This document shows, one piece after another, positions 1 through 55,524 of a stretch of 64,000 bases of DNA (the first letter of the stretch is position 1; every line of letters starts with the position of its first letter). A program made the position numbers and the translations under genes. Under the pieces are notes generated by a model. The model was not told the origin of the DNA. It ran no database searches and saw nothing but the letters and a program-made list of their open reading frames with translations. The stretch is from Psilocybe cubensis (Eukaryota), in assembly GCA_017499595.2 (NCBI GenBank), contig CM039004.1, positions 3,038,001-3,102,000 of the forward strand, given 5' to 3'.

Positions 1-3000
1 CCCGATTTTGTACCAACCGGCCGCTATACTGAAGAGAGAATGAAGCAGTTCGATGAAGTACACACCCCAGGATTCCTCTGGACCGAAGAACGAAAATTAT
101 TACACCATTTCATGATGCAACATCAAGAAGCTTTCGCATGGAACGATACAGAAAGAGGTCACTTCAGGGAAGACTTCTTTCCCCCAGTGAACATCCCAGT
201 TATTCCTCACAAACCTTGGGTACAGCGCAATCGACCCATTCCTCCTGGTATCTATGACGAACTCTGCAAGTTATTACAGAAGAAAATTGACGCTGGTGTC
301 CTTGAGCGATCCAATTCTCCGTACCGAGGAGCATGGTTTACAGTCACTAAAAAGGATGGCAAGTCTCTACGAATTGTACAATCCCTAGAACCATTAAACG
401 CCGTCACAATAGCACACTCTGGAGTGCCTCCCTTCACAGAACAGCTCGTAGAACAGTTTGCTGCAAGAGCATGCGGTGGAATGCTGGATTTATTTGTTGG
501 ATACGATGAACGGGCGCTTGCTGAATCCTCCCGCGATTATACCACTTTCCAGACGCCTTTTGGCGCCCTCCGACTTACCACACTTCCAATGGGATGGACC
601 AACTCAGTCCCCATCTTCCACGACGACGTTACATACATTTTACAGCCAGAAATTCCGCACACAACCATTCCTTACATCGACGACGTCCCAGTTAGAGGCC
701 CAGCTACTCGATACATATTGCCTTCTGGAGACTTTGAAACAATTCCCGAAAACCCAGGAATTAGGCGGTTTATTTGGGAGCACTTCCAGGGACTCAGTCG
801 CGTTGTCCAACGCATGAAATATTCCGGTGGAACATTCTCTGGATTCAAATCACTACTCTGTGGTCCAGAAATAACAGTGCTAGGCCATCGTTGCACTTAT
901 GAAGGCCGTCTCCCAGATCTGAGCAGAGTTTCAGCCATTGTGAACTGGGGACCATGCTCAGACTTATCCGATGTTCGATCCTTTCTTGGTACCATGGGTG
1001 TTTGTAGAATATTCATTCGGAACTTTTCCCATCGTGCTAATCCTCTCATTAAACTCACCCGCAAGAACCAACCGTTTGAATGGACTCAAGAACAAGAAAA
1101 AGCGCAGCAAGACCTTAAAGAAGCACTCCTGAAATCACCAGCCCTTCGTCCCATCGACCACTCGTCCCCAGCACCAGTAATCCTCGCAGTTGACACATCT
1201 AAAGATGCTGTTGGACACTTACTTTGTCAATGCGATTTACAGAACCCCCGCATTCGATACTATTCAAGATTTGGATCCATTACCTTAAACGAACGTGAAG
1301 CGCGATTCTCTCAACCCAAACTCGAGTTATACGGCCTCTTTCGCGCGTTTCGAGCCCTCAAGCTTTACCTCATCGGTGTACGAAATCTAGTCGTTGAGGT
1401 AGATGCGAAATACATTAAGGGAATGCTTTCCAACCCAGACCTTGCCCCTTCTGCAAGTATTAACCGATGGATTACAGCGATTTTAATGTTTCATTTCGAT
1501 CTAGTTCATGTACCAGGTACTCACCACGGACCAGACGGATTATCACGCCGAAAACCACAGCCAGGAGACGAGCCCGAGCCTGAAGACGACTTCGAAGACT
1601 GGATCGATGAAATGCAAGGTTTTATGCATATTCTGAATCCCATTACCACAGCACTCACTGTGCAAGTTCCAACACTCGTATACTCCACCTCCCTCGCGCC
1701 AGAACCGTCTCCCTCAGAAAATAACGACCATTCTACACCAAATACATCATCCGACGACTCCCAGACTTCCTATTCCATTATTCCTCGATCCGACGTTGCA
1801 CACAAGGCTGATGAACGCACATTAAAGGTCAAAACATGGCACGAAACGCTTAAGCGCCCAGACGGCATGACGGACTCGGAATATTCGACATTCCTTCGTT
1901 ACTGCACAGAATTCTTCGTGGCATCGGATAGACTATGGAGAAAGGATCACCATGGACATCATAAGCTCGTCGTACCCATAGAGCGACGTTTATTCATTAT
2001 TTCTTCAGCTCACAACGACGTTGGACACCATGGATTCTTTGCTACAAACTCACTAATAACAGAACGATACTGGTGGCCTTACATGGGCTTTGATATCGCT
2101 TGGTTCATTCGTACCTGCCACCTCTGTCAACTTCGTCGTACCCAGAACGTTCTAATCCCACCAACCGTTGCAATTCCAGCTCCACTCTTCGCCAAAGTCT
2201 TTCTAGACACAATGCACCTTCCCCCATCTGGAGGCTACAAATACATCATCCAAGCTCGATGTTCGCTTTGCCACTTCCCAGAATTCGATCCGCTTCGTCA
2301 AGAAACCGCAAAAACAGTAGGAGAATGGATTCTACGAAACTTAATCTACAGATATGGAATCCTCATCGAAATTGTCACGGATAATGGACCCCCAATCGTC
2401 AAAGCTTGTGAATACCTTTCCAAACGGTATCATATCAATTACATTCGCATCTCGAGCTACAATTCACAAGCAAATGGTCTCGTTGAACGCAGCCATTTTG
2501 ATGTTCGTCAAGCCCTCTTCAAAGCATGCGATGGGGATCAATCCAAGTGGTCTCTATACGTTCACTACGTTTTCTGGGCCGAAAGAGTTACAGTACGACG
2601 TCGGATGGGATGTTCACCTTATTTTGCACTTACAGGAACGCACCCCTTGCTCCCCTTTGATATTGTCGAAGCCAATTACCTTCTACCGCCCCCAGATTCC
2701 ATTCTATCAACCACAGACCTTATTTCTCGCCGCGCAGTCGCTCTCTCAAAACGTCGATCCGATCTTGCAAAGTTACACTCAAAAGTGTATGAAGAACGCC
2801 TCAAAGCAGCTACCCGATTCGAACGAGAACATGCCAACACAATTCGTGACTACGATTTCAAGCTCGGAGACTTAGTTCTCATTCGAAATACGGCTATCGA
2901 GAAGTCTCTCAACAGAAAAATGCGAGCTCGTTACCTCGGACCACTCATTGTCATTTCCAGAAACAAAGGAGGTGCCTACATACTTGCTGAACTCGATGGC

Positions 3001-3204
3001 TCCCTCTTCGATCGCCCTGTCGCCGCCTTTCGAGTCATTCCCTACTTTCCCAGACAGAAACTCGACTTACCACCCCTCGATGAACTCCTAGATGTGTCCC
3101 AAAAGCAACTACAACAACTTAAAGACTCAGTTTCACCTGACCCGGATGAAGACCTTGATTCTGAAGATTACAACGCAATACCACAGGACGACGACCCCCT
3201 CTAG
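1..3204 (+). CDS. pol: Ty3/Gypsy LTR-retrotransposon pol polyprotein (RT-RNase H-integrase); the 5' end lies outside the window
   Basis: The frame is open from base 1. RT motifs LDLFVGY, LPMGWTNS and YIDD; RNase H AVDTSK..ELYG..VEVDAK..DGLSR; integrase HHCC (AHNDVGH..CHLC) and D-D-E core (FLDTM, VTDNG, NGLVER); GPY/F-like YLGPLIV. The order RT-RH-INT is the Gypsy order. Confidence 0.95.
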   Translation, partial: PDFVPTGRYTEERMKQFDEVHTPGFLWTEERKLLHHFMMQHQEAFAWNDTERGHFREDFFPPVNIPVIPHKPWVQRNRPIPPGIYDELCKLLQKKIDAGVLERSNSPYRGAWFTVTKKDGKSLRIVQSLEPLNAVTIAHSGVPPFTEQLVEQFAARACGGMLDLFVGYDERALAESSRDYTTFQTPFGALRLTTLPMGWTNSVPIFHDDVTYILQPEIPHTTIPYIDDVPVRGPATRYILPSGDFETIPENPGIRRFIWEHFQGLSRVVQRMKYSGGTFSGFKSLLCGPEITVLGHRCTYEGRLPDLSRVSAIVNWGPCSDLSDVRSFLGTMGVCRIFIRNFSHRANPLIKLTRKNQPFEWTQEQEKAQQDLKEALLKSPALRPIDHSSPAPVILAVDTSKDAVGHLLCQCDLQNPRIRYYSRFGSITLNEREARFSQPKLELYGLFRAFRALKLYLIGVRNLVVEVDAKYIKGMLSNPDLAPSASINRWITAILMFHFDLVHVPGTHHGPDGLSRRKPQPGDEPEPEDDFEDWIDEMQGFMHILNPITTALTVQVPTLVYSTSLAPEPSPSENNDHSTPNTSSDDSQTSYSIIPRSDVAHKADERTLKVKTWHETLKRPDGMTDSEYSTFLRYCTEFFVASDRLWRKDHHGHHKLVVPIERRLFIISSAHNDVGHHGFFATNSLITERYWWPYMGFDIAWFIRTCHLCQLRRTQNVLIPPTVAIPAPLFAKVFLDTMHLPPSGGYKYIIQARCSLCHFPEFDPLRQETAKTVGEWILRNLIYRYGILIEIVTDNGPPIVKACEYLSKRYHINYIRISSYNSQANGLVERSHFDVRQALFKACDGDQSKWSLYVHYVFWAERVTVRRRMGCSPYFALTGTHPLLPFDIVEANYLLPPPDSILSTTDLISRRAVALSKRRSDLAKLHSKVYEERLKAATRFEREHANTIRDYDFKLGDLVLIRNTAIEKSLNRKMRARYLGPLIVISRNKGGAYILAELDGSLFDRPVAAFRVIPYFPRQKLDLPPLDELLDVSQKQLQQLKDSVSPDPDEDLDSEDYNAIPQDDDPL

Positions 3205-4084: not shown

Positions 4085-4764
4085 ACATACCATCTATGTA
4101 CTCGGAAACAGGCAGTTAAGAGTGGGAAGACACAAATTTCCAAGCGACTTTGCCTAAATGAAATTATCCGCATTAGGGAATTATTTCCTAATTTAGGGAT
4201 ACAGCGTAGAATGACAAAAAATAATCTGATATTTTTTTGCCTATTGCTTCTTTGGCTGCATCCATCACGGTGAAGAAAACATAATTCTCTTTTGAATATC
4301 CATAATTCTCACATTGTACTTAGTGGAATTACCTGGCCAATGAACAGAAGCGAGTCCATGCTCTTTGCCAGCTTCTCACGCTCGATAGTGTGTATGTAAA
4401 CCTGTCATTTGATTTTGATGACTACACATAACGAGAAGATTTCCCGGACATAAGAGCTCCGAACAGCGAAAGTATCATTAAGCAGAAGCTTTCATGAGAA
4501 AAAAAGATTAGTAATTCGAAACATCCCCCCGTTCAAGTTCGCGCAGTAGTAGCAAGTTGGTAGCAGGAAAGCGTATGCTTTTGCAACCGAAATAGCGCAT
4601 GACTTAGTGGTAGCTGGGTATAGCGCCAGCTATACTACCTCGGGGACTCCGGTTGACATGAACTCATATAAATGTTGCAAAGAATGAAAGAAAAAACATT
4701 AAATTCGCTCCAGAGACGAAGACAATAAGCCCTTGAACTTCACAGAACCTACCACACATAGCCA

Positions 4765-5457
4765 ATGTCATCGCATCAAGTCCTCAATATCGGCCTTATT
4801 CTTTTTCCAGGTTATCAATGGCTTGACGCGGCAGGCTGCATTGACTACCTTTTCAATCACTCTCGCGAAGCTTTGGCCCCGTATTTTTCTCACAGCAACC
4901 CTGGAGTAGTCGCTAAAGCACCCAGCATGAAATGGCATTACATATCTTCCGACAGATCCCTTGTGCACGCAACGTCAGGCCCACCACAGCTTCCCACTGC
5001 AACATATGACGACTGCCCTGGCCTCGATTTACTTGTCGTACCAGGTCCAGACCCCACGTTTCCCCCTCCACCGGGCTTTGTCGAATTTATGCAGAAGCGC
5101 TACGCAGACCCAGAGCTCAAAGCACTCCTGATGGTGTGCACTGGATCCATCATGGTCGCACACAGTGGGATTCTGGATGGGCGCCAAGTCTGTAGCAACA
5201 AGTTCATTTTGAAGGAGATGGCCACAGCGGGCACCTTGAACAGAAAGGTCAAGTGGATTGGGGATAGAAGGTGGATTGTAGACGGAAAATTGTGGAGCGC
5301 GGGAGGGGTAACATGCGGTGTCGACCTCGCTGCGGAGTACGGCAGGGTTCATTTCGACAAGGAAGTTGGGCAGACTGCCATGCATATTTCTGAATACAAG
5401 CCGAATCCCGACAAGCCAGATTTTTTCGCCTACATCACAGTTGGCGTAGACTTGTAA
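4765..5457 (+). CDS. DJ-1/PfpI (class I glutamine amidotransferase-like) protein, intronless
   Basis: 230-aa ORF with QWLDAAG, DLLVVPG, nucleophile elbow MVCTGS, GILDGR and RRWIVDGKLWSAGGVTCGVD, resembling isonitrile-hydratase/ThiJ-type DJ-1 proteins. Confidence 0.92.
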   Translation: MSSHQVLNIGLILFPGYQWLDAAGCIDYLFNHSREALAPYFSHSNPGVVAKAPSMKWHYISSDRSLVHATSGPPQLPTATYDDCPGLDLLVVPGPDPTFPPPPGFVEFMQKRYADPELKALLMVCTGSIMVAHSGILDGRQVCSNKFILKEMATAGTLNRKVKWIGDRRWIVDGKLWSAGGVTCGVDLAAEYGRVHFDKEVGQTAMHISEYKPNPDKPDFFAYITVGVDL

Positions 5458-6460: not shown

Positions 6461-7313
6461 AATAAGTATAACGCATCTAGGCTATGTTTGATTGAGAGCT
6501 GTAAGCGCCGCGGCTTCTGGTCAATAGAACATTGTGATTCTCGACATGATTGGATACATTAGACACTGCGGAGGTACGCGCGTATCAGTAACCGTATGTA
6601 ATCTCGGCCATGACTCGCGGTAGTGTGAACATACATACATAAGTCTTCGCAAATTCTTTAGCAGCAAGCAAATGTCGCAAAACGATAGTATCTCCCCGGA
6701 TCTCGACACATTATCCCTATTGGGGAATGTCTTTTCCAAGTGCAAAAATGGGCAGTTTACTGAGGATTCTCGTATACTCGAAAGATTGGCTAGGTTTGAT
6801 TTGCAGGCATTTTCGGAGATAAAATCTAGAAGGCGGGCTTGTAATTTACAATCATTGACTGGATATTAATAAATGAAAGGGTCGACAGCACCTTTGAAAA
6901 TGAGTTAATGCCTGGCCACCGCCGCACCCGCTCGATTGTTCGTTTTGGTCCTTCTAAACCATCCAAGGCTCCAAGCTCTCATGACCGGTACAATGGGGCG
7001 TTGCGACGCGGTGTGAATGGACGTAGATGAGAACTTTCGGACAAAAATTAGTAATTTAGCAACGTTCAGGGACGATATGAGATTTTTTGTCCAATCTAGG
7101 AGCTCGGTTAGCAACCAAAGATGGGTTCAATATTCAAGTACCTTCGATGCTGGGTTGTTGAGATCAATGATTCTTGTGCCGTTCTGATTTGAAACGGGCA
7201 GAGCCGAAAACAGATTTATCTACTCTATATAAGATCAGATAAAAACGGTGAATATCAGAATAAAAAACGCGCACCCATTTACCATCTAGTTGCTTCAACT
7301 TCCACACTTGTTC

Positions 7314-8000
7314 ATGTCAGCGCCAGAGCTCAGCGTAGGCCTCGTCCTTCTACCAGAACACCAGTGGCTCGACGCCGCTGGGACTACCGACTATCTCTAT
7401 AACCACTCCTACGACATACTTTCCAAGCTCTACACAGACAATCCAGAACTGGTCTCAAAGGCGCCCCGTATGACGTTCCATTACATTTCCTCCGACTATT
7501 CTCCTGTACATGCTTCGTCGGGCCCGCCTCAAACACCCACTTGCACATACGAGAATTGTCCCTTTGTGGATATCATCATAGTCCCCGGAGCCGATCCCGC
7601 AGCTGAGGCGCCAAAGGGCTTTGTCGAATTTATACAGACGCGCTACGCAGACCCAAAGTTCAAGGCCATCCTCATGGTCTGCACCGGCTCAATGTGCATC
7701 GCCCGCACCGGCATCCTCGACGGACACCAGGTCTGCAGCAACAAATTTGTCTTGCGCATGGCGGCCAACAACAAGATGCTCTACGACAAAGTCAAGTGGA
7801 TTGGAGATAGGCGATGGATTATTGATGGAAAGCTTTGGAGCGCGGGCGGGGTGACATGCGGAATAGACCTGGCTGCAGAGTACGCGAGACAACATTTTGC
7901 GCCTGAGATTGTCCAGGCAGCGATGGACATTTCAGAATACAAGCCAAATCCTGCCCAGCCCGACCCATTTGCGTATTTGACAGAGGGGTTGGGATTGTAG
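7314..8000 (+). CDS. DJ-1/PfpI family protein, paralog 2, intronless
   Basis: ATG at 7314 (MSAPELSVG); same motifs as paralog 1 (HQWLDAAG, MVCTGS, GKLWSAGGVTCGID). Confidence 0.92.
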   Translation: MSAPELSVGLVLLPEHQWLDAAGTTDYLYNHSYDILSKLYTDNPELVSKAPRMTFHYISSDYSPVHASSGPPQTPTCTYENCPFVDIIIVPGADPAAEAPKGFVEFIQTRYADPKFKAILMVCTGSMCIARTGILDGHQVCSNKFVLRMAANNKMLYDKVKWIGDRRWIIDGKLWSAGGVTCGIDLAAEYARQHFAPEIVQAAMDISEYKPNPAQPDPFAYLTEGLGL

Positions 8001-34114: not shown

Positions 34115-36616
34115 ATGACGTTTTCTTCAATCGATCCTTTCGATCTACATGGTTTTGCATCTGAATCGGCAAAGCAGTACCGCGAACACATACAAGAGCT
34201 CGTCTACTATGGGGAATCACGATTAAAACGAGCGGTGGACGAGATTTTAAAAAAACCGATGGAAGATCAAGCTCCATTCCAAAAATGCCTACGAAAAGAA
34301 CTGGTTAGTAACTCAATTAATGGGATACCTTTTACTAATGGTTTTACAGCATTACTTTTTGACTTACGTGGGCTTGATCACATCAATGGGACAAGTTGTT
34401 GATGTACCATTTACGCTGCGTTCGTTGGCATTTTCTTTAGGGAGAATTGCTCCAGAGGATCTACCCATGCAATTCAACGTCGAGTTCGTGCAAGCGCTTA
34501 ACATAACACGCGATGAAGACCGTGGGGAAGTAGTAGCGAGCTACAAAAGACCGTGGTGGGAAGAATTCAGGCCAAGTTGGCGATCTGTCATAGACGATGG
34601 TTCAATCGGCGAGTGTTTATCACACCACAGGAAACTAATAGGAATAGAAAATAAACATCGTTTTATTGAGTCTCTTGGTAGCGATATCACTCCATCCTCG
34701 TTTGCCATGACACCAGGAGAGCGAATGCTCTTTGAACCACTTCAGAACGCTCGGCGAACAATTATGGTAATGACTGAAGCTCAAACGAGCCATCAGAGTG
34801 TCATTTTCAGAAAGGCAGAGGAATACTGGAATCTGCATGACGCTTCGAAGGCCGAAGGGATGAATAGGGACCATTGGAAAATGGGCATTACCGAGATGGG
34901 TAACAATATTACGGAGATTGGAGGTGTTGACTATGTTGATAGGTGCGTGTTTCTGCAGAGGAATAGCGTTCCAGCGGCGTTGATACCGAAACACCTAAGA
35001 ATAGGATATCAACACCGGCATTTCAACGTGCGACGTCATGCAATGACCCGCCTTTGGTTCGGGATTCAAAACACCGTTCGAAAGACTGGAAACCGTCAGA
35101 ATTGGATGATGATTACAGTCTCTCCCCGCTTCCGTCCCCTGCACTGCTGTACCGCTCAGAATCAATCCAAACCGATCAAGGCACCGTGCCTGTAGAAACT
35201 GTACCGCCCCATTCTGGTCCTGATATCTCGTGTGGTTCGCCAGAAGAAATGGGCGATCTTTCTATGCAAGCGTCACTATCACCAGGTTTTGCTAGCGCAC
35301 GGTCCCGCGATGAAATGGCAGAGTTGTACGAGGATATAAAGCCCCATATCCAAGAACCTATCCAAAGTTACTCGCCCGAATTCCACCCACCCATCCGTAT
35401 TCCTTTGGCAGATGAATTAGGAGATCTTTTCAGGGACATCCCTTCAACTCCAGGCCGATCATTTGATATGGAGATACTGGGGATACAGTCTCCTAATGTG
35501 CTCGCGACATTATACGAGGAAATAACACCCCAATTCGGCATAGATCGCCAATCCTCGCCGGAAATCAAAACACTTCGCCTGAACCCTTCGGCAGATGATT
35601 TAGGAGAACTTTTCAATGATATTTTACCGCCCTCAGGCCTCTCTATCGATCCTGATATTACTGCAACGCGACCTTCTGATGTACGTTCAACGCGGGACGA
35701 GGATGTAACGCTCCAAATTAACGTAGATCGCCAATCCTCGCCGGAAATCTGCGCACTTCGCCTTAATCCTTCACCAGATGATTTAGTAGATCTTTTCAGG
35801 GACATTCTACCACCTGCAGGCCTGTACCCCAATCTTGATATTAATGGAACGCGGCCTTCTAATGTGCCTGCAACATTGTACAAGGAAATCACACCCCAAG
35901 TCGACGTAATTCGCCAATCCTCACCGGAAATCTATGCGCCTCACCTTAATCCTTCACCAGATGAGTTAGGAAATCTTTTCAGGGGTATTCTTCCACCTTC
36001 AGGTCCATTTTCAAATGTCGAGTATACTGGAACTCAGTCTCCGCAAGAGTGTACAACAATGCGCGAGGATTCGACGCCTAAATGCTACCCATCTCGCCAC
36101 ATTGCTTCGACGGATGAATTAAGCGAACTCTTTATGGACATCCTACCTAATCCAGAGCCTTTGAAGAGGTCAGAGGCCCAGACCCCCAATAAACGTTCAG
36201 GGTTTACAGAAGATACACCACCCACGTATCATCCAAACTGTTATATTTCATCACCGGACGAATTAGGAGAGCTTTTCAGGGACTTAAAACCTGCCTCAGA
36301 GCTGTCGGAGAGCCCTAGTGCCTACGTTGCACAGTCCCCAAATGACATTGCAGCACTTTGGCAAAATACTAACCAACCCAATAACCATTCACCTCGCCAT
36401 AATGCTTCGCCAAATGAGCTGGGGGCGTTGTTTCAAGGTATTACACGGCTCGCTCAAACGACGGATAATAGTGCTAACACAGCACTGCAAGGTACCTCAA
36501 ACGTCATGTCTCGTCCACCAGCCTCGAGCAATATTCATGAAGATCAAAGTCTTTCATTGGGCAGTAGTAACCATCTGAATGGGCTCCCTTCCAAGAGGCA
36601 AAGACGTCAAAAATAA
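34115..36616 (+). CDS. Orphan protein with a C-terminal ~59-aa tandem repeat (DELGELF.DI.P)
   Basis: Exon 34115-34302, intron GTTAGT..CTAAT..ACAG, exon in ORF 34320-35195, and ORF 35054-36616 with the repeats. The link between the last two (intron or frameshift) is unresolved. Confidence 0.5.
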
Positions 36617-40773: not shown

Positions 40774-43309
40774 TTACAAACAAAAGTCAATGTCAATGGG
40801 TTGATCCGAAGTACCTCCATACCACTGGTGTTGGCTGGCTTCTAACTTTTCCCGCGAATGAACAGGAATGTAGGGCATCTTATCAGCATCAATCTCCGCC
40901 GAGGAATCCGAATCCTTATCACCAAATTTCTCGCCCTGTTCGTCCTGTCCGCCCTTCTCGCCTTCTTCGCCGTTCTCGTTCTCTTCGCCGTTCTCGTTCT
41001 CTTCCCCGTTCTCGTTCTCTTCCCCGTTCTCGTTCTCTTCGCCGTTCTCGCCCTCTTCGCCGTTCTCGTTCTCTTCGCCGTTCTCGCCCTCTTCGCCGTT
41101 CTCTCCCTCTTCGCCGTTCTCGTTCTCTTCGCCGTTCTCGCCCTCTTCGCCGTTCTCGCTCTCTTCACCGTTCTCGCCAATCCCGGTTTCATCACCAACC
41201 TTGCCCGAAGACTTAGAGAAAAGTCCTTTGCTGTCAAGAATTTTGGTTTGAGAGTCAGTTTGAATTCCTTGGTCCTTTGTACTCCCGCGGCGAAATGGGC
41301 AGGGACCTTCTTCCCCTCTGTGGTAGGTATCATCGTGCATGTTCTCCATCGTTATTTCAACACCGACTAATTTATGAAGGACATCACTATGATAGGAATG
41401 CAGGACTTCGAATTTGTTTGAGAGCATGTCTATAGCAGCCATGGAAAACGCCATTTTCGCTGCAATATAGTCGAAGCCATGGTCGTGATTAGCCAATTGC
41501 TTGTCGATTCGCTTCATGACTTTGTTCATCTTAGTGATATTCTTCTCTAATCGGGCCAGGCGATCTTCATTAGGGTAAGCTTCATTATCTGCATCTGCTT
41601 TGTTGTCTTCCCAATTGCGAATATATGTCGGCCGTGTAGGTAGTGGGCCTGCTGGAGCACGAGCTTCACTTCGCGCCATATCTTCTGCCACCCATGCTTC
41701 CCAATTCCTGGCAAATTCTTCTACAAAGATGTAAGCATACAATTTGCATAATACTGGATGAATTCTTACCAATGTCTTTAGCCGCTCTCGCAGATTTCTC
41801 GGGAGGAAGTGAGCTAGACGATGCTTTGGGTGGTGCGGTGTACCTTGGTATGGCTTCCCATGATTTGAGTACGTTCTCTGTTTTGATCTTAGCCTCAGTG
41901 TAGACAAACTGATAATGTACCTTACCCATAGGATGTTTGTCTTGGTTGGTTTGGGAAGAATTGAGGTCTGCGGTCTGCTCGGATATAGGTTGCTTTCCAT
42001 TGCTGTGCTTTGGATCTCTCAGCGCCGGCGAGTGATGTTGAGGGTCGTGATGGCCACAATTTTCATCTGGTTCAGGTGAGCCGGTTTCGCGTTTAGGCCT
42101 TTTTTGGCGATGCAATGGTTTTCCATGTTTTCTAGCTTCTTCAACAGGACCTGTGATATCTTCGTTCGCCTCAGGCAGCCTCCTCACAATAGTATCCCCT
42201 CGATTGTCACAGCGAACCCGATGCGAACCACAATAAAAGCAAGAGTACCCTTTATATGTGACACGGCAATTAATATTGCGATCTGCGCACTGAGCGCAGG
42301 GTTGGAGATGGACATAGTTGGTTGGAACAGGAGGTGTGCGATCCTGCTTTGTTTCAGAGCGGCCTTGCACCTTTATGTTCGTTTTAACGTTGGAATGTGG
42401 GGCGGGTTCTGGAGTAAGTTTGCGACCAAAGTTTTCAGTAGACGTTGGACCCTTTGCTACTGCTGCCATGGCTCGTGTGATTCGTTTTCCAGATGAAGTG
42501 TCCGACGAGGGTGCAGGTGCTATAACACGAGTGTCTGGCGGATTGATATTAGAGGGAATATCTGATGGAACATATCCATCTTCGTTATTGTTGTCGCTTG
42601 AGTTTTCAATAGATACAAGTGTTTTTGGTGGTGGAAGTTCGGGGCTGGCTTGCCTGGCCTGTTGCACTCGACGTTTCTTAAGTGGAGGTGACGGTTCTCT
42701 AATGAGTGCGGAATGGTTTGCACTGTCGTTGACGATTGTCTCTGCGACTGTCTTGGTTTTCTCAGCGCTACTAGACCGCGAGCGCTTATTGGCGACTTGG
42801 TGTCGAGACTTTCTTGTCGTGCGTCTTGGACCCTCAGAGTCTTGGCGAATTCGGCTGCCCTCGCCATCCACATTTTGGCGAACGTGCACTTCTGAATGCT
42901 GGTCATCCTTGCCTTCTAATGTGGGCTTCTGTACTGGTTCATCGTGCGGATCATCGATCTCACGTTGCAGATTTTGGCAGTATTCGAGAAACTCGTGGCT
43001 GCGATGCTCTCTCTTGCGGAAAGCGTGTCCATAAGCACTCAGAAAGGCGAAAAGGAAGTTATACTGGGGCTTTTCTTTTTCCTCCTTGAAGCGACCGCAG
43101 GTTGTGGCAACCGCTTTCTAAATTGTTGTCTCGGTGTATGGTCAACATGTAAAAAGAATATAACTCACTGCTGTTTCCAAGTGCGAATCCATAACTTTAG
43201 CAACATCACCATCGACAAGGCTCTTCCGAATTTTTTGATCAAGTATCTTTATCGCCTCCTGGAACGTTGATAGATTATGGATAGATTGGAGCTCAGTGGA
43301 TTCAGACAT
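40774..43309 (-). CDS. Zn(II)2Cys6-like cluster protein with coiled coil and acidic (GEENEN)n tail, multi-exon
   Basis: CAQCADRNINCRVTYKGYSCFYCGSHRVRC = CX2CX6CX8CX2CX6C (42209-42298); LARLEKNITKMNKVMKRIDKQL coiled coil; probable ATG at 43309 (MSESTELQ). Confidence 0.6.
40958..41178 (-). repeat. 18-bp coding minisatellite (GEENEN/GEEGEN), about 12 copies
   Basis: CCGTTCTCG(T/C)(T/C)CTCTTC(G/C) tandem units. Confidence 0.92.
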
Positions 43310-48071: not shown

Positions 48072-48171
48072 NNNNNNNNNNNNNNNNNNNNNNNNNNNNN
48101 NNNNNNNNNNNNNNNNNNNNNNNNNNNNNNNNNNNNNNNNNNNNNNNNNNNNNNNNNNNNNNNNNNNNNNN
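48072..48171. other. Assembly gap (100 N)
   Basis: Run of exactly 100 N, typical of a scaffold join of unknown size. Confidence 0.99.
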
Positions 48172-48229
48172 GGCTGTTGGGGGATCCCAACAACCAGCCC
48201 TTTCGTCTTTATAGACTCTTCAGTGGCTA
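48172..48229 (-). ncRNA. Hammerhead ribozyme, partial (cleavage site falls in the N gap)
   Basis: Identical core and stem II; the sequence stops at ...CAGCC in stem III, 3 nt before the predicted cleavage site. Confidence 0.75.
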
Positions 48230-48826
48230 TTCTTAGAAGGAATGTTCTAGACATCCGATGACAGCGCGTGAAGTGATGCTGCGCAGCTGTCATGTATCTT
48301 ACCGACTATCACAAATCTGTCAATGTTTATTGTCAAGTTAGACAGGTCTCTGATGAACAGAGTGTCACGGGTCGATGTGGCACATGGTAACCTGTCAAAA
48401 GTGGATCCAACACTTTTGTTCTTTGACATCGTGGGTTATTGACTGTGATGTGAATCACATGGATATAGATTACTCTGGTTACGTGGCTCCGAGTAACCGC
48501 GACATGGGAATATTCACATGTCTAGAGTATAAATAGCTTACCTGGGTCCTTACCTAACAATCAAACAATAGAATGATTGATTGTTGTGAATCTTAATTGG
48601 ACAGTTCATGATCCGGTCCATCAAAAATGTTTCCACGGTACTAAGGAACTTTTCCCGAAGTACTAAGTAACTTTTCCCATGTACTAAATTAGATCCGGCC
48701 CTTCACAATCACATGCCGTTCGGAAGTTCACACGCCTACCTTACTTCCTACTAAGGTTAGACTTAGTTAGCTTAGGGTTGGGGTTAGGTTAGGGTTTAGG
48801 GTTTAGGGTTTAGGGTTTAGGTTTAG
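48172..48826 (-). repeat. Pseudo-LTR copy 1 (3' end of the full-length element, cut by the gap), including its telomeric tract
   Basis: Direct repeat of 52589-53217 and 53293-53950. Confidence 0.9.
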
Positions 48827-48938
48827 CTATTTAATCCAAAGTGTTGCTTGTAAGTAGATGTTTGTTACTTTATAGCAAGGAATACTTACGGTTAGGGTTT
48901 TTTTCTAATGCTTTACGCCTTACGCGCTAGTATTCTTT

Positions 48939-51900
48939 TCATCGGTTGTAAGATTTGGATATTCTGCCGAATTCTGGATGTTCCCTCTCTTGTGAGATTG
49001 AACGTCTATGAAGTATTATCTCGTTATCACTTTCGATACTTATCTGTTCAGCAGCTTCAACTAGAGCAGAATGATAAGTTTCATTAACGTTTTGAGTTTC
49101 GGGAACAACACCACCTTTTTCAGCGATGTTTTCATCCAGTTTACGAAAGACTGTTTTCTTCCACACATTTGCAAGGTCGAAAAGATTAGTATTGCGCTTT
49201 CGCGATACTATCCAACGACTTCCGAGTAGTCCTATCTTCCTCAAATCCGGTACGAACTCAGTTTCTCCGTCCACGAGGATCTGTGTGAACAGCTCCGGGC
49301 GAACATCATCGAGGTCGTGAACGTAATTTGGATCTGGTTTGATAAGGGGTCTGGACGAGTCTGCACTATACAGACCTTTCTCGGCATGTTCATACCATGC
49401 CGACCAGTACTCGGTAACAGTCTTTCCAAGTTCAGCAGCTGAAAACCAATTCCATACCTGATCAAATCTGGTTTTAAGTACAAGAATGGATTCGTCGTGC
49501 TCTGCGACTCGTAAAGCGAATCGCTTTTCCCAACGTTCTTGTATATTCTTCTTACACCAAGACATGACTAGGTTTTCGGGATAACCGCGCATCAAATAGA
49601 GAGCGTTAAGGTCTCTAATTGCTCCGATGTAGATTTCCTTGGTACTACATAGCACGGCTAACCTGGATAACTCTCCAATGTAGACGCCACGTTTGACGTC
49701 CAAAGGATGATGTGATACCCATGGAACTCGTTCTCGGTTGTTTCCTGTCTTGACAAATGGCTTCCAATGAAGTTTTCCAGACTCCTTGAATATGAAAGCA
49801 TCGAGAAATTGACATCCCGACGAGGAAACAGCCCATTCGATAACACAACCATCGAACTTTATTGTTTCTTTAATAAGATTAAGTGCAAGTGCTTCGGACT
49901 CGGCGTAAACAATTGCGAAACAATCGTCGATGTACCTTCCATAGAAGGCCACGTTTGGGTGGTCTAAGATTTTTGACTTTATTTCAAAATGGGCTCCAAA
50001 GAGGTTAGCAAGGTCCGGAGAATCCGCGACGCCCATTGCGAGGCCATTTTTTTGTCTAAAATATCTAGACCCATGTTGTGTTATCAATTGCGTATTGCCA
50101 ATCTCGATAGCACGTTTAAAGATGCCCAATTTAACCAAGTTATTCTCTAACGAATTTGGATTAATATGGGCTAATGCAGTGTTCTCTTCCGAAGCGTTGA
50201 GTAACCATTCCTCGTACATATTACAAACGATTTCGATGCACAAGTCCAACGGAATATTGGGATAGAAAGCAACTACATCCCCGGTGACAAAATACCATTG
50301 TCGTTTGGGGTCTATACGCAATTGGCTTAATCTCGTAAAGAGATCCTTCGTTCCGTGAATGATTGAAGGAGTCGATTTAATAATCGGCTTAAGCTCTTTT
50401 GATACAAACTTGGCTGCAGGATTAAATACTACAGAGTGACACGGAATTATGGGCCTAAATCCAGTAGGTTTCTTGTGGATTTTAGGTATACCATGAAATT
50501 GAGGATACTTGAACGATGATCCGTCTTCCGGTACATTCGATAGAAAGAATCGAGACAACCCAAGTTCAAATAGAAACAGATGTTCATCTTCGACGGTACG
50601 TGCGAGAGTTTGCATCTGAATCATTTTGCTCTTCATAACTTCTTGCGCAACTTCGAATTCTAACTCTTCGTAGTTGCGTTCATCTTCAAGAAGATTGAGC
50701 TCATTCCTTAATATCCAGTCGCGTTCAGACACCGCGAGGCCAAGATTCTTATCTGTCATCGTAATAACATAGTTGTTATCGAAAAGAAACTTTTGGATCT
50801 TGTCCCTTTTAGGAGAGAACGCGTGCTTTCGCATCTCTTTAAGGGCTTCTTCCGGGATACTTGCGATCGTTTTAATAACGTACCGACGTCCCATTGAAAG
50901 GCCAAGTTCCATAAATTGCGGTAACATTGGAGGTTTCTCTTTCTTTTTAGAGCTTACTCCATAGTCTGGATCGAAAGGTTTATTCATGCCTTCTTTAAAC
51001 AAAAAATAGATACGCCATCTTATTCTTCGTTGAAAATCATTCCATGCTTGCATGATCAGATTTTTAGAAGGCAGTGTAAAAAACATATAATTGAGTCCAA
51101 GAGATAAATCATTTGCTACATCAACAGGGACCGAAACACCAGGACTACAGTGTACACTAGATCTATACTGGCCAGCCAATAAGAATGAAATCGGGGTATT
51201 GAGGTGTACAAAAGAAACTGCGTCTGTTTTAGTCATGGTGAGTATATCGTCAGGAATAGAGTTGGGGAAGGCGGGTCTCACCGACGTAAATGATGCTACA
51301 GTAGACCGCGCGTCTAGGCTCTTGCCTTTCCCTTTCCCTTTGGATCGTTGTTCTTGACGGGAGCTCTCCCCTTCCCTTTCTTCTTGTTGTCGACCTTGTT
51401 GGAAGCCTTGGTTTGAGGCTTCCTCTGCGAAGGCGTCGACGACGACTTGGGTTTCGAAGGGCCAGCTTTCCTGGCCTGAGGTTGAGGAGCCTTGGACGAA
51501 TTCTGGCCAGACAAAGTCTGGGTAATTAGAGTAATAATTAGTGTCCAGAATTATGGGTGAAGGGTTACGAAAACTTGCCTTCTTGCCCACAGATCCAAGG
51601 TTGAGCTTTTTGAGACGTGCATTCAAGCCCTTATCAATAAGGGATTGAATCGATGGACCTGGTTTGGTCGCATCGGCCATCTCGACATCGGCTGTTGCCG
51701 CAGTCGTCCGCTTTTTCTCAATCTTAATTGCCAAGGCGCGGTGGCGCATGTTGACAATCTGTTTGATATGAGAAAAGATCGCCGGCAGTATAGTTTGCAG
51801 CGCACTGCATTCGGCTTTCTTTTGCGGAGACACTACCCACTCTGCTATACGTCGAACTCCCTTGTTGTCTGTAGAGAAAACAGGGAGCTTGTAGCTGGAT

Positions 51901-52472
51901 TTGCGATCATCGTAAGTTGCCTTAACGATGAGGGCAGCAGCTTCGTAGCAAGAGTTGAGCGCGCATTTATCATCCCAAAAAGCCAGCTCGTCCTTTTTCG
52001 CCTGAACGGCGCCGTCGTTAATTGCCTTTTGGAAGGCATCACGAGCGGAAGAGAACGTAGTGGAGACTCGAAGAGCCTCCGCTGACCCGGCATCCGCGAA
52101 TTCCTTCGTAAGTTGGAACTCGGGTGCCTTCACCTTAAGGCGATTGGGCGTGTTGCCTGCGCTAACGGCAGATTCAAGGCGCTCGAGGCTAGCCTTGACT
52201 GTTTCCCTCTTGTCGCACCACGATGCGAGGTTGAGGAGAAACTCCCTGAGGGCAGCACGATAGTCAAAAAAGACGCAGTCTATGACTTGGTCAACGGAGC
52301 GGCACTCAGCTATTTTTTTGATGACCACAGTGGCCAGCTCGTCGATAAGAGCGTTATGGCGGCCTGCTTCATCGTTGACGCCGAAGACAGTGTTGTTGAC
52401 GACGGCCTGGGTGAGTGCGTCCAGGGTAGGGGACATGGCACGAGAGAATGCAGCAGAGTATTGGGATGACAT
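48939..52472 (-). CDS. Coprina-type PLE ORF1-reverse transcriptase, 1177 aa (intron-retained form)
   Basis: TDKNLG, FHGIPKIHKKPTGFRPII, GDVVAFYPNI, QKNGLAMG, YGRYIDDCF and CQFLD motifs; helical Ala-rich N-terminal region; no endonuclease motif. Confidence 0.93.
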   Translation of the reverse strand: MSSQYSAAFSRAMSPTLDALTQAVVNNTVFGVNDEAGRHNALIDELATVVIKKIAECRSVDQVIDCVFFDYRAALREFLLNLASWCDKRETVKASLERLESAVSAGNTPNRLKVKAPEFQLTKEFADAGSAEALRVSTTFSSARDAFQKAINDGAVQAKKDELAFWDDKCALNSCYEAAALIVKATYDDRKSSYKLPVFSTDNKGVRRIAEWVVSPQKKAECSALQTILPAIFSHIKQIVNMRHRALAIKIEKKRTTAATADVEMADATKPGPSIQSLIDKGLNARLKKLNLGSVGKKASFRNPSPIILDTNYYSNYPDFVWPEFVQGSSTSGQESWPFETQVVVDAFAEEASNQGFQQGRQQEEREGESSRQEQRSKGKGKGKSLDARSTVASFTSVRPAFPNSIPDDILTMTKTDAVSFVHLNTPISFLLAGQYRSSVHCSPGVSVPVDVANDLSLGLNYMFFTLPSKNLIMQAWNDFQRRIRWRIYFLFKEGMNKPFDPDYGVSSKKKEKPPMLPQFMELGLSMGRRYVIKTIASIPEEALKEMRKHAFSPKRDKIQKFLFDNNYVITMTDKNLGLAVSERDWILRNELNLLEDERNYEELEFEVAQEVMKSKMIQMQTLARTVEDEHLFLFELGLSRFFLSNVPEDGSSFKYPQFHGIPKIHKKPTGFRPIIPCHSVVFNPAAKFVSKELKPIIKSTPSIIHGTKDLFTRLSQLRIDPKRQWYFVTGDVVAFYPNIPLDLCIEIVCNMYEEWLLNASEENTALAHINPNSLENNLVKLGIFKRAIEIGNTQLITQHGSRYFRQKNGLAMGVADSPDLANLFGAHFEIKSKILDHPNVAFYGRYIDDCFAIVYAESEALALNLIKETIKFDGCVIEWAVSSSGCQFLDAFIFKESGKLHWKPFVKTGNNRERVPWVSHHPLDVKRGVYIGELSRLAVLCSTKEIYIGAIRDLNALYLMRGYPENLVMSWCKKNIQERWEKRFALRVAEHDESILVLKTRFDQVWNWFSAAELGKTVTEYWSAWYEHAEKGLYSADSSRPLIKPDPNYVHDLDDVRPELFTQILVDGETEFVPDLRKIGLLGSRWIVSRKRNTNLFDLANVWKKTVFRKLDENIAEKGGVVPETQNVNETYHSALVEAAEQISIESDNEIILHRRSISQEREHPEFGRISKSYNR
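51314..52472 (-). CDS. Predicted spliced ORF1 (Gag-like) protein, 365 aa: exons 52472-51579 and 51517-51314
   Basis: 61-nt intron AAG|GCAAGT...CTAAT...CCAG| (51578-51518); splicing joins ...GKK to TLSGQNSSK...KGKGKARA*, a Lys-rich tail in another frame. Confidence 0.65.
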
Positions 52473-52501: not shown

Positions 52502-53208
52502 GGGTTTAGGGGGGGAGCGAGCACCGAGCGAAGCGAGGTGCGAGCGACTAGTTTAAACTGTGAGTTTGAAATAGAAAGAAGGCCAGAGGGCTGTTGGGGG
52601 ATCCCAACAACCAGCCCTTTCGTCTTTATAGACTCTTCAGTGGCTATTCTTAGAAGGAATGTTCTAGACATCCGATGACAGCGCGTGAAGTGATGCTGCG
52701 CAGCTGTCATGTATCTTACCGACTATCACAAATCTGTCAATGTTTATTGTCAAGTTAGACAGGTCTCTGATGAACAGAGTGTCACGGGTCGATGTGGCAC
52801 ATGGTAACCTGTCAAAAGTGGATCCAACACTTTTGTTCTTTGACATCGTGGGTTATTGACTGTGATGTGAATCACATGGATATAGATTACTCTGGTTACG
52901 TGGCTCCGAGTAACCGCGACATGGGAATATTCACATGTCTAGAGTATAAATAGCTTACCTGGGTCCTTACCTAACAATCAAACAATAGAATGATTGATTG
53001 TTGTGAATCTTAATTGGACAGTTCATGATCCGGTCCATCAAAAATGTTTCCACGGTACTAAGGAACTTTTCCCGAAGTACTAAGTAACTTTTCCCATGTA
53101 CTAAATTAGATCCGGCCCTTCACAATCACATGCCGTTCGGAAGTTCACACGCCTACCTTACTTCCTACTAAGGTTAGACTTAGTTAGCTTAGGGTTGGGG
53201 TTAGGTTA
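52502..53208 (-). repeat. Pseudo-LTR copy 2 (5' of the full-length ORF)
   Basis: ~705-bp unit bounded by GGGTTTAGGG motifs. Confidence 0.9.
52581..52646 (-). ncRNA. Type I hammerhead ribozyme
   Basis: Minus strand UAGCCA-CUGAAGA-GUCU(AUAA)AGAC-GAAA-GGGCUG...CAGCCC-UC^UGGCC: complete core with stems I, II and III and a CUC cleavage triplet (C17 = 52586). Confidence 0.88.
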
Positions 53209-53952
53209 GGGTTTAGGGGGGGAGCGAGCACCGAGCGAAGCGAGGTGCGAGCGACTAGTTTAAACTGGGAGTTAAATGGAAAGTAGCCAGAGGGCTGTTG
53301 GGGGATCCCAACAACCAGCCCTTTCGTCTTTATAGACTCTTCAGTGGCTATTCTTAGAAGGAATGTTCTAGACATCCGATGACAGCGCGTGAAGTGATGC
53401 TGCGCAGCTGTCATGTATCTTACCGACTATCACAAATCTGTCAATGTTTATTGTCAAGTTAGACAGGTCTCTGATGAACAGAGTGTCACGGGTCGATGTG
53501 GCACATGGTAACCTGTCAAAAGTGGATCCAACACTTTTGTTCTTTGACATCGTGGGTTATTGACTGTGATGTGAATCACATGGATATAGATTACTCTGGT
53601 TACGTGGCTCCGAGTAACCGCGACATGGGAATATTCACATGTCTAGAGTATAAATAACTTACCTGGGTCCTTACCTAACAATCAAACAATAGAATGATTG
53701 ATTGTTGTGAATCTTAATTGGACAGTTCATGATCCGGTCCATCAAAAATGTTTCCACGGTACTAAGGAACTTTTCCCGAAGTACTAAGTAACTTTTCCCA
53801 TGTACTAAATTAGATCCGGCCCTTCACAATCACATGCCGTTCGGAAGTTCACACGCCTACCTTACTTCCTACTAAGGTTAGACTTAGTTAGCTTAGGGTT
53901 GGGGTTAGGTTAGGGTTTAGGGTTTAGGGTTTAGGGTTTAGGTTTAGGTTTA
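53209..53952 (-). repeat. Pseudo-LTR copy 3 (3' end of the truncated copy), including its telomeric tract
   Basis: Tandem direct repeat of copy 2; differs mainly over ~30 nt next to the ribozyme. Confidence 0.9.
53284..53350 (-). ncRNA. Type I hammerhead ribozyme
   Basis: Same core with a perfect 6-bp stem I, UAGCCA/UGGCUA (C17 = 53290). Confidence 0.9.
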
Positions 53953-54065
53953 GCTATTCAATCCAATGTGTTGCTTGTAAGTAGATGTTTGTTACTTTAT
54001 AGCAAGGAATACTTACGGTTAGGGTTTTTTTCTAATGCTTTACGCCTTAAGCGCTAGTATTCTTT

Positions 54066-55389
54066 TCATCGGTTGTAAGATTTGGATATTCTGCCAAATT
54101 CTGGATGTTCCCTCTCTTGTGAGATTGAACGTCTATGAAGTATTATCTCGTTATCACTTTCGATACTTATCTGCTCAGCAGCTTCAACTAAAGCAGAATG
54201 ATAAGTTTCATTAACGTTTTGAGTTTCGGGAACAACACCACCTTTTTCAGCGATGTCTTCATCCAGTTTACGAAAGACTGTTTTCTTCCACACATTTGCA
54301 AGGTCGAAAAGATTAGTATTGCGTTTTCGCGATACTATCCAACGACTTCCGAGTAGTCCTATCTTCCTCAAATCCGGTACGAACTCAGTTTCTCCGTCCA
54401 CGAGGATCTGTGTGAACAGCTCCGGGCGAACATCATCGAGGTCGTGAACGTAATTTGGATCTGGTTTGATAAGGGGTCTGGACGAGTCTGCACTATACAA
54501 ACCTTTCTCGGCATGTTCATACCATGCCGACCAGTACTCGGTAACAGTTTTTCCAAGTTCAGCAGCTGAAAACCAATTCCATACCTGATCAAATCTGGTT
54601 TTAAGTACAAGAATGGATTCGTCGTGCTCTGCGACTCGTAAAGCGAATCGCTTTTCCCAACGTTCTTGTATATTCTTCTTACACCAAGATATGACTAGGT
54701 TTTCGGGATAACCGCGCATCAAATAGAGAGCGTTAAGGTCTCTAATTGCTCCGATGTAGATTTCCTTGGTACTACATAGCACGGCTAACCTGGATAACTC
54801 TCCAATGTAGACGCCACGTTTGACGTCCAAAGGATGATGTGATACCCATGGAACTCGTTCTCGGTTGTTTCCTGTCTTGACAAAAGGCTTCCAATGAAGT
54901 TTTCCAGACTCCTTGAATATGAAAGCATCGAGAAATTGACATCCCGACGAGGAAACAGCCCATTCGATAACACAACCATCGAACTTTATTGTTTCTTTAA
55001 TAAGATTAAGTGCAAGTGCTTCGGACTCGGCGTAAACAATTGCGAAACAATCGTCGATGTACCTTCCATAGAAGGCCACGTTTGGGTGGTCTAAGATTTT
55101 TGACTTTATTTCAAAATGGGCTCCAAAGAGGTTAGCAAGGTCCGGAGAATCCGCGACGCCCATTGCGAGGCCATTTTTTTGTCTAAAATATCTAGACCCA
55201 TGTTGTGTTATCAATTGCGTATTGCCAATCTCGATAGCACGTTTAAAGATGCCCAATTTAACCAAGTTATTCTCTAACGAATTTGGATTAATATGGGCTA
55301 ATGCAGTGTTTTCTTCCGAAGCGTTGAGTAACCATTCCTCGTACATACTACAAACGATTTCGATGCACAAGTCCAACGGAATATTGGGA
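54066..55389 (-). pseudogene. 5'-truncated second copy of the PLE RT
   Basis: Nearly identical to 48939-50262 with a few substitutions (CNMYE/CSMYE, VMSW/VISW, DENI/DEDI); breaks inside RT motif A directly at the telomeric tract. Confidence 0.92.
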
Positions 55390-55524
55390 TTAGGGTTTAG
55401 GGTTTAGGGTTTAGGGTTTAGGGTTTAGGGTTTAGGGTTTAGGGTTTAGGGTTTAGGGTTTAGGGTTTAGGGTTTAGGGTTTAGGGTTTAGGGTTTAGGG
55501 TTTAGGGTTTAGGGTTTAGGGTTT
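55390..55524 (+). repeat. Telomeric repeat tract (TTTAGGG) x ~19, interstitial in this assembly
   Basis: TTAGGG, then 18 perfect TTTAGGG units, then TTT. Confidence 0.97.

Follow-up and report, generated by a model that had tools for sequence, protein, structure and literature searches.

Hammerhead ribozyme motifs beside telomere repeats in a putative Penelope-like element array of Psilocybe cubensis

An array of minus-strand units joined by telomere repeats

The 64,000-nucleotide stretch of Psilocybe cubensis contig CM039004.1 analysed here (hereafter the window) holds an array in which a reverse transcriptase (RT) open reading frame (ORF), hammerhead ribozyme motifs and telomere-like repeats follow one another on the minus strand, and which we read as the work of an endonuclease-less Penelope-like element (PLE). 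The RT ORF, P0001, was recognized from its reading frame and its relatives. It occupies positions 48939..52472 (minus strand, as for all features below unless stated), encodes 1177 amino acids with the motifs TDKNLG and YIDD, and lies between two of the hammerhead motifs, termed B and C below. A second ORF unit (53954..55385), approximately 1% diverged from the first, is truncated at its 5ʹ end and retains an ORF of 426 amino acids (54066-55346).

The closest named relatives of the RT are P. cubensis proteins with 98-99% identity, followed by hundreds of metagenomic proteins with 45-74% identity. Across 20 aligned relatives, both TDKNLG (residues 573-578) and YIDD (residues 847-850) show little or no variation, and DKG/DKN is used as the name of a PLE RT motif in PMC13159263. 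A relative with 48% identity matches the Pfam family RVT_1 with 34.7 bits, such that this domain is reached by way of relatives only. A GIY-YIG endonuclease domain was not detected with Pfam at E-values up to 10, which is a weak negative since the whole protein is without a Pfam match, and searches of solved-structure sequences with the RT protein and with its family profile returned no significant reverse-transcriptase match. The nearest Atlas clusters, which we treat as a lead only, are of basidiomycete and rotifer origin. The anatomy of telomere-associated PLEs that lack an endonuclease, with Coprina as their fungal clade, is described in PMC8557442, PMC6431247 and PMC13159263. Because the locus combines an RT, no detected endonuclease and C-strand telomere repeats between its units, we provisionally assign the host element to the Coprina-type endonuclease-less PLEs.

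Read in the sense direction, the first half of a unit consists of a hammerhead with its predicted cut, a tail of approximately 70 nt that contains a GC hairpin, one C-strand telomere unit, a 5ʹ untranslated region (UTR) of approximately 30 nt and the RT ORF. The second half opens with approximately 110 nt past the ORF, followed by the internal C-strand telomere tract, approximately 600 nt of non-coding body, and then another hammerhead, its tail and C-strand telomere repeats. Sequence comparison places tail A at 53222..53289, where the 3ʹ strand of helix I is followed by a variable patch and then by a GC hairpin whose loop is UCGCUUCGCUC, and places tail B, which has the same composition with six differences clustered at 52561-52581, at 52515..52585. 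A repeat search located the single reverse-complement telomere unit CCCCCCCUAAACCC (52502..52514), which links tail B to the 5ʹ UTR of the ORF. The bodies were delimited by repeat comparison: the non-coding body of module copy 1 spans 52653..53189, that of copy 2 spans 53357..53898, and that of the copy downstream of the ORF spans 48236..48763.

Repeats of the telomere type mark the boundaries between units of the array. The internal C-strand tract begins approximately 110 nt past the ORF stop codon (48764..48853), a second tract separates the truncated ORF copy from module copy 2 (53893..53953), and a degenerate C-strand tract, evident from its sequence and repeats, joins the two adjacent 3ʹ modules (53190..53221). 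Viewed on the plus strand, G-type telomere-like repeats (TTTAGGG/TTAGGG) thus lie between all units. The truncated copy is capped by approximately 20 near-perfect TTTAGGG repeats (55386..55524, plus strand), beyond which ordinary genes are found, and a run of 100 N (48072..48171) represents a scaffold gap that adjoins the array. TTAGGG would be expected as the telomere repeat of a mushroom; the interstitial telomere tract at 55386-55524 has a 7-nt repeat instead, and relatives of the element have both CCCTAA and CCCTAAA.

The layout recurs among 80 related loci, which are metagenome contigs scanned with an alignment of 20 RT proteins. Telomere tracts on the sense strand are of the C type only, and one of them lies approximately 110 nt past the stop codon in most loci, succeeded by a non-coding body and by the next hammerhead. 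Tails that precede an ORF are connected to its ATG by one telomere unit and a short UTR. The distance from the predicted cut to the ATG is 82-155 nt in 19 loci and in the window, approximately 1170 nt in two loci and ambiguous in one. Of 53 distinct tails, 43 have CCCTAA at 9-80 nt past the cut (median 60), and in 40 of those 43 it is preceded by a hairpin of at least 5 bp, often with CUCGCUUCGCUCG or CUUCGG as its loop and with stems that covary. The tail hairpins of the window itself (52515-52560 and 53222-53267, minus strand) are situated directly 5ʹ of a CCCUAA(A)CCC unit. By analogy, this layout of hairpin and telomere unit recalls a telomerase RNA template with its boundary helix.

Two type-I hammerheads and the conservation of their fold

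A pairing-aware descriptor scan found two complete type-I hammerheads on the minus strand, with predicted cuts after 53290 and after 52586 and thus a spacing of 704 nt, whereas the same descriptor gave 0 matches across 5 shuffles of all 418,259 bases scanned. Hammerhead A (53278..53356) would be cut at 53290/53289, and hammerhead B (52573..52652) at 52586/52585, 113 nt upstream of the ATG of the RT ORF. In minus-strand order, both copies present the 5ʹ strand of helix I, CUGAAGA, helix II, GAAA, helix III, UC and the 3ʹ strand of helix I. Helix I comprises 4-6 bp, helix II comprises 4 bp (GUCU/AGAC) closed by a 4-nt AUAA loop, and helix III comprises 5-6 bp, a bulge and a further 6 bp (GGGCUG, bulge, GUUGGG, loop, CCCAAC, CAGCCC). 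The assignment to type I follows from helix I being open, with helices II and III closed. Judged by the core features CUGANGA, GAAA, A15.1-U16.1, H17 at the cut and G10.1-C11.1, both copies agree with the hammerhead consensus through their CUGAAGA and GAAA segments, their UC cut site and the G-C pair that closes helix II.

We also built a covariance model (R1) from nine metagenomic relatives, using a structure line that we set ourselves and including no window sequence. Within the 64-kb window, this model matches hammerhead A (77.4 bits, E 3e-21), hammerhead B (68.7 bits, E 1e-18) and a third copy interrupted by the scaffold gap, and nothing else. The third copy, hammerhead C (48172..48235), preserves the 5ʹ two-thirds of the motif only (partial match of 41.7 bits at 48185-48235), as the 3ʹ strand of helix III and the cut site are lost in the gap. 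The agreement of descriptor and family model bears out an earlier sequence-only reading of this DNA, which had proposed two complete type-I hammerheads 704 nt apart in adjacent pseudo-long terminal repeats (pLTRs). That reading had also proposed the release of an ORF-containing monomer of approximately 4.4 kb. The size agrees with a hammerhead-to-hammerhead repeat spacing of 4417 nt in the window (4.2-5.3 kb in five two-copy loci among the relatives), but the downstream cut, expected at 48169, is absent from the assembly, where the run of N lies. The Infernal search of Rfam that had been suggested as a check failed as worded, with no match to either hammerhead at gathering score. In E-value mode, the best matches were to RAGATH-1-hammerhead (gathering score 56.3), with 29.1 and 25.3 bits, accompanied by a partial match to Hammerhead_3 (gathering score 48.5) with 19.5 bits. 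Taken by their sequence, the hammerheads are functional-looking type-I ribozymes that are predicted to cleave.

Among the 80 related loci, the descriptor finds hammerheads in 33 (40 matches), all on the RT strand, and the covariance model yields 59 matches (E<=0.01) in 47 loci, every one of them likewise on the RT strand. In an alignment fitted by the model, which therefore leans towards the structure, standard pairs fill 92.9% of 898 pair cells compared with 62.5% for shuffles, and both partners have changed in 271 cells compared with 84.5 in shuffles, with 0 of 500 shuffles reaching 271. When the 3ʹ partners are slid out of register in this alignment, pairing falls to 34-47%. Covariation is present in all hammerhead helices of the family and includes the first five pairs of helix I. 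Matches to the core alone number 70 in the sense and 11 in the antisense orientation, a comparison that leaves no freedom of choice; helix II is paired in 56 of the 70 sense matches versus 1 of the 11 antisense matches. Because the model-based covariation and the core-only helix II counts agree, we conclude that the hammerhead fold is a conserved feature of this element family.

Two other treatments of the relatives were dropped. From nine of them, RNAalifold derived a structure in a register that paired the A residues of the core with a run of U, and our own structure line took its place. MAFFT aligned helix III of 35 hammerheads poorly with respect to structure; core-anchored counts and the model alignment were used instead. 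A separate observation concerns the helix II region (e.g. 53322-53327), which contains TATAA in 30 of the 48 distinct members of the family; 17 others have a different A/T-rich word there. As DNA, this segment lies 40-50 nt upstream of the cut and could also function as a TATA box.

A further point of the sequence-only reading concerns stem I. It had observed that the 3ʹ strands of this stem differ between the copies and that both nevertheless pair, and this part stands, with duplexes of -8.1 and -7.5 kcal/mol. The selection on the fold that it had read from these two variants does not survive a shuffle control: the pairing is not above chance, since 42% and 64% of 2000 shuffled distal strands pair equally well or better.

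The RNA evidence consists of assembled contigs from RNA-like sequencing runs, and such contigs cannot show the ends of molecules. Run X23, whose RNA origin is a guess, supplied one contig, the end of which at 52588 falls 3 nt short of cut site B on its upstream side; run X15 contributes three short pieces at low depth. The metatranscriptome run X17 gives two short contigs, one of which is taken up below. In run X18, which comprises raw DNA reads, no match to the locus was found.

Origin of the 704-nt tandem

The 3ʹ module, composed of a telomere tract, approximately 600 nt, a hammerhead, a tail hairpin and a telomere unit, occurs in three copies in the window, one after the ORF and two before it. 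The spacing of 704 nt between the complete hammerheads therefore arises because this module is present twice head-to-tail. Copy 0 (48172-48790) and copy 1 (52589-53207) are identical at 619 of 619 positions. Between the two complete units, 7 of 707 aligned columns differ, and six of these seven differences fall within 52561-52581, 4-24 nt past the cut. This variable patch (52561-52581 in one copy and 53268-53286 in the other) lies beside the cut, and contigs of two other runs carry further variants there. At the junction between the modules, the tail end CCCUAAACCC is laid onto the internal telomere tract. The interval is non-coding, as the sequence-only reading had held, with the longest overlapping ORF reaching 113 amino acids, and its RNA folds somewhat more stably than shuffled sequences (z -2.84, 20 shuffles).

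Module tandems are also present in two of the related loci. L071 has two hammerheads 614 nt apart, and L021 has three modules at spacings of 773 and 705 nt. In L021, the module bodies start at differing points after telomere repeats of differing length, and the two outer copies (6991-7070 and 7696-7775) have broken cores, with CAAA in place of GAAA and, in one of them, GAC in place of GAG as well. The broken cores indicate decay of older copies. Judged from these sequences, the pattern points to successive additions of 5ʹ-truncated copies to a chromosome end and not to uniform circle monomers. For the tandem in the window, too, a history in which the 3ʹ module was repeatedly added at the end appears to be a better explanation than a retrozyme cycle.

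Two active, co-transcribed ribozymes must yield a 704-nt RNA, and its release is predicted to hold only if both ribozymes are indeed co-transcribed and active. The circular form of this RNA that had been suggested is unsupported. The junction sequence of such a circle would equal the genomic tandem junction, and divergent reverse transcription PCR alone could therefore not prove that a circle exists.

We consider it probable that the hammerheads are part of the module at the 3ʹ terminus of a Coprina-type PLE that lacks an endonuclease and attaches to telomeres. For cleavage in vivo, priming and the origin of the tandem, we infer the following course of events. C-strand repeats at the 3ʹ end of the RNA would pair with the G-rich overhang of a chromosome and prime reverse transcription, and elements would accumulate head-to-tail as a consequence of such priming. 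The module of the upstream neighbour would then supply a hammerhead (and probably also a promoter), and that hammerhead would trim read-through transcripts to a defined 5ʹ end approximately 100 nt before the ATG. The extra module might represent an element truncated at its internal telomere tract, where copying stopped inside the tract; the end of the truncated complementary DNA would have resembled a telomere, and the next element could have been primed there. Under these circumstances, any transcript that runs through both ribozymes would, once cut, automatically release the 704-nt RNA as a by-product.

Several results weigh against this explanation. The RT of the window has no Pfam match at E-values up to 10, and the suggested placement in Coprina draws on architecture and named relatives instead of a tree that includes reference sequences. 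In RNAfold, a competing fold (-29.5/-30.5 kcal/mol) is favoured by 2-4 kcal/mol over the hammerhead-constrained fold (-27.3/-26.7 kcal/mol); in the competing fold, (C)GAAAG of the core pairs with CUUUC(C/G), a motif conserved in the tail (minus strand, 53279-53300 with 53320-53328), and by this folding model it could serve as an on/off switch. One of the two contigs from run X17 extends over 53235-53400 and spans cut site A uncut. Cutting must moreover be incomplete, or the pieces must stay paired, because the 3ʹ cut removes the tail and the telomere unit that would act in priming. In the scaffold, the array is not at a chromosome end, as genes for an ABC transporter and a thiolase lie past the (TTTAGGG)20 tract and the N gap lies opposite. 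Finally, the module copies, with one difference outside the variable patch in approximately 680 nt, are more alike than the ORF copies (approximately 1%), which the simple end-addition model leaves unexplained.

That last result is among those that would be expected if the 704-nt unit were instead a retrozyme-like, non-autonomous element, excised by double self-cleavage, circularised and copied by the RT of the host element. The circle could be closed, for example, by the fungal tRNA ligase, which joins 5ʹ-OH and 2ʹ,3ʹ-cyclic phosphate ends. Tandem intact ribozymes bounding a non-coding unit of retrozyme size, the somewhat elevated stability of its fold and the module-only tandems of L021 and L071 would fit such a cycle as well, and animal retrozymes have been proposed to derive from the pLTRs of PLEs (preprint 10.64898/2026.07.22.740005). 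We nevertheless regard this origin as improbable. In L021, the units meet at telomere repeats with variable 5ʹ truncation instead of at the cut site, and of its three tandem copies two have lost an intact core; the window holds two adjacent copies only, and the hammerheads are confined to one strand. Support is also lacking in the RNA contigs, from which ends could not be seen in any case, and the literature matches listed include no report of a genomic retrozyme in fungi, which provides no precedent and no exclusion. A further version of this idea would make the 3ʹ module a separately propagating, non-coding 'telomeric retrozyme' of fungi: its hammerheads would excise it, it might circularise, and a Coprina RT would copy it onto chromosome ends, with the conserved tail hairpin and the CCCUAAACCC unit acting like a telomerase RNA template with its boundary helix; this, too, we hold to be quite doubtful.

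There is some chance, albeit a small one, that the hammerhead serves mainly as a 3ʹ-terminal scaffold that presents the telomere unit and tail hairpin to the RT and the G overhang, its cleavage being incidental or suppressed. The conserved order of hammerhead, tail hairpin and CCCTAA unit, the masking of the core by the competing fold, and the detachment of the telomere unit that cutting would cause are all compatible with a mainly structural role. Such a role would not, however, account for the full catalytic core being kept in the family and lost in decayed tandem copies, nor for the fixed distance that the cut keeps to the ATG, and a related fungal motif cleaves in vitro (PMC4209133). Highly improbable, in our judgement, is an assembly artefact of a multi-copy repeat, by which two hammerheads that lie apart in the real genome were brought together. 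The N gap adjoins the array, the module copies are approximately 100% identical apart from one patch, as in collapsed or polished repeats, and the raw DNA of run X18 lacks a match, but the tandem sits in gap-free sequence, its two copies have distinct tail variants and distinct junctions, and independent metagenome contigs hold comparable tandems.

The remaining ORFs of the window are fungal, with matches to Pkinase_fungal, a gypsy-type integrase and RNase H. A gypsy-type retrotransposon fragment with integrase and RNase H occupies 1-3204, and two DJ-1/PfpI paralogues lie at 4762-5457 and 7290-8000. A 183-nt tandem repeat (2.6 copies) spans 35517-35997, and an 18-nt tandem repeat (12.7 copies, 40950-41177) lies inside an ORF with a weak, sub-threshold match to collagen repeats.

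Relation to known ribozyme-bearing elements

Type-I hammerheads with a large helix III were published in 2014 for the telomeric PLEs of fungi and protists, and the hammerhead of a Serpula lacrymans PLE is described as cleaving as a monomer in vitro (PMC4209133). The motifs in the window resemble these in their type-I form, in which helix III is large and stable and the other two helices are short, and in their location within the repeated flanks of an RT-only element by telomere repeats in a fungal host. What is new here is Psilocybe as a host lineage, whereas the presence of hammerheads in fungal telomeric PLEs was already known (PMC4209133).

According to PMC8557442 and PMC6431247, endonuclease-less PLEs attach to G overhangs by means of reverse-complement telomere repeats that lie beside hammerheads. 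The Athena/Terminon elements of bdelloid rotifers share with the P. cubensis locus a 3ʹ-terminal hammerhead followed by short reverse-complement telomere repeats, as well as 5ʹ-truncated, telomere-capped copies and head-to-tail arrays near host genes (PMC8557442, PMC6431247). As described there, these elements are giant units with multiple ORFs in which the repeats come immediately after the cut. In contrast, the P. cubensis locus has a single ORF in a unit of approximately 4.4 kb, an approximately 70-nt hairpin tail intervenes between cut and telomere unit, and the repeat is TTTAGGG/TTAGGG.

The animal non-LTR (long terminal repeat) retrozymes are similar in being short, non-coding units that are related to PLE flanks and lie between type-I hammerheads in tandem (PMC7229834; 10.64898/2026.07.22.740005). 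Unlike those elements, the P. cubensis array has only two adjacent copies, whose units are bounded by telomere repeats, and its long helix III leads us to expect a ribozyme that acts as a monomer. A parallel can also be drawn with the 5ʹ hepatitis delta virus (HDV)-like ribozymes of R2 and other non-LTR retrotransposons (Ruminski et al. 2011, as cited in PMC13725137), which likewise occur at a fixed, short distance before an ORF. As with these 5ʹ ribozymes, the motif could trim co-transcripts and leave an uncapped messenger with a 5ʹ-OH end. Both the ribozyme class and the element class in P. cubensis nonetheless differ from those of the R2-type HDV-like ribozymes.

Endonuclease-less PLEs are the closest relatives of telomerase, and the processing of their RNA and its priming at chromosome ends are still a model. 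The discovery reported here is a modest one because hammerheads of fungal telomeric PLEs have been in print since 2014. Together with 47 hammerhead-bearing metagenomic loci, however, the P. cubensis locus presents a clean, conserved layout of cut, hairpin and one telomere unit, with the ATG approximately 100 nt on. Its occurrence in a culturable mushroom would make this layout directly testable, with respect to the ribozyme as the possible definer of the 5ʹ end of the template, to the need for an uncut 3ʹ end and to the RNAs that would consist of the module only.

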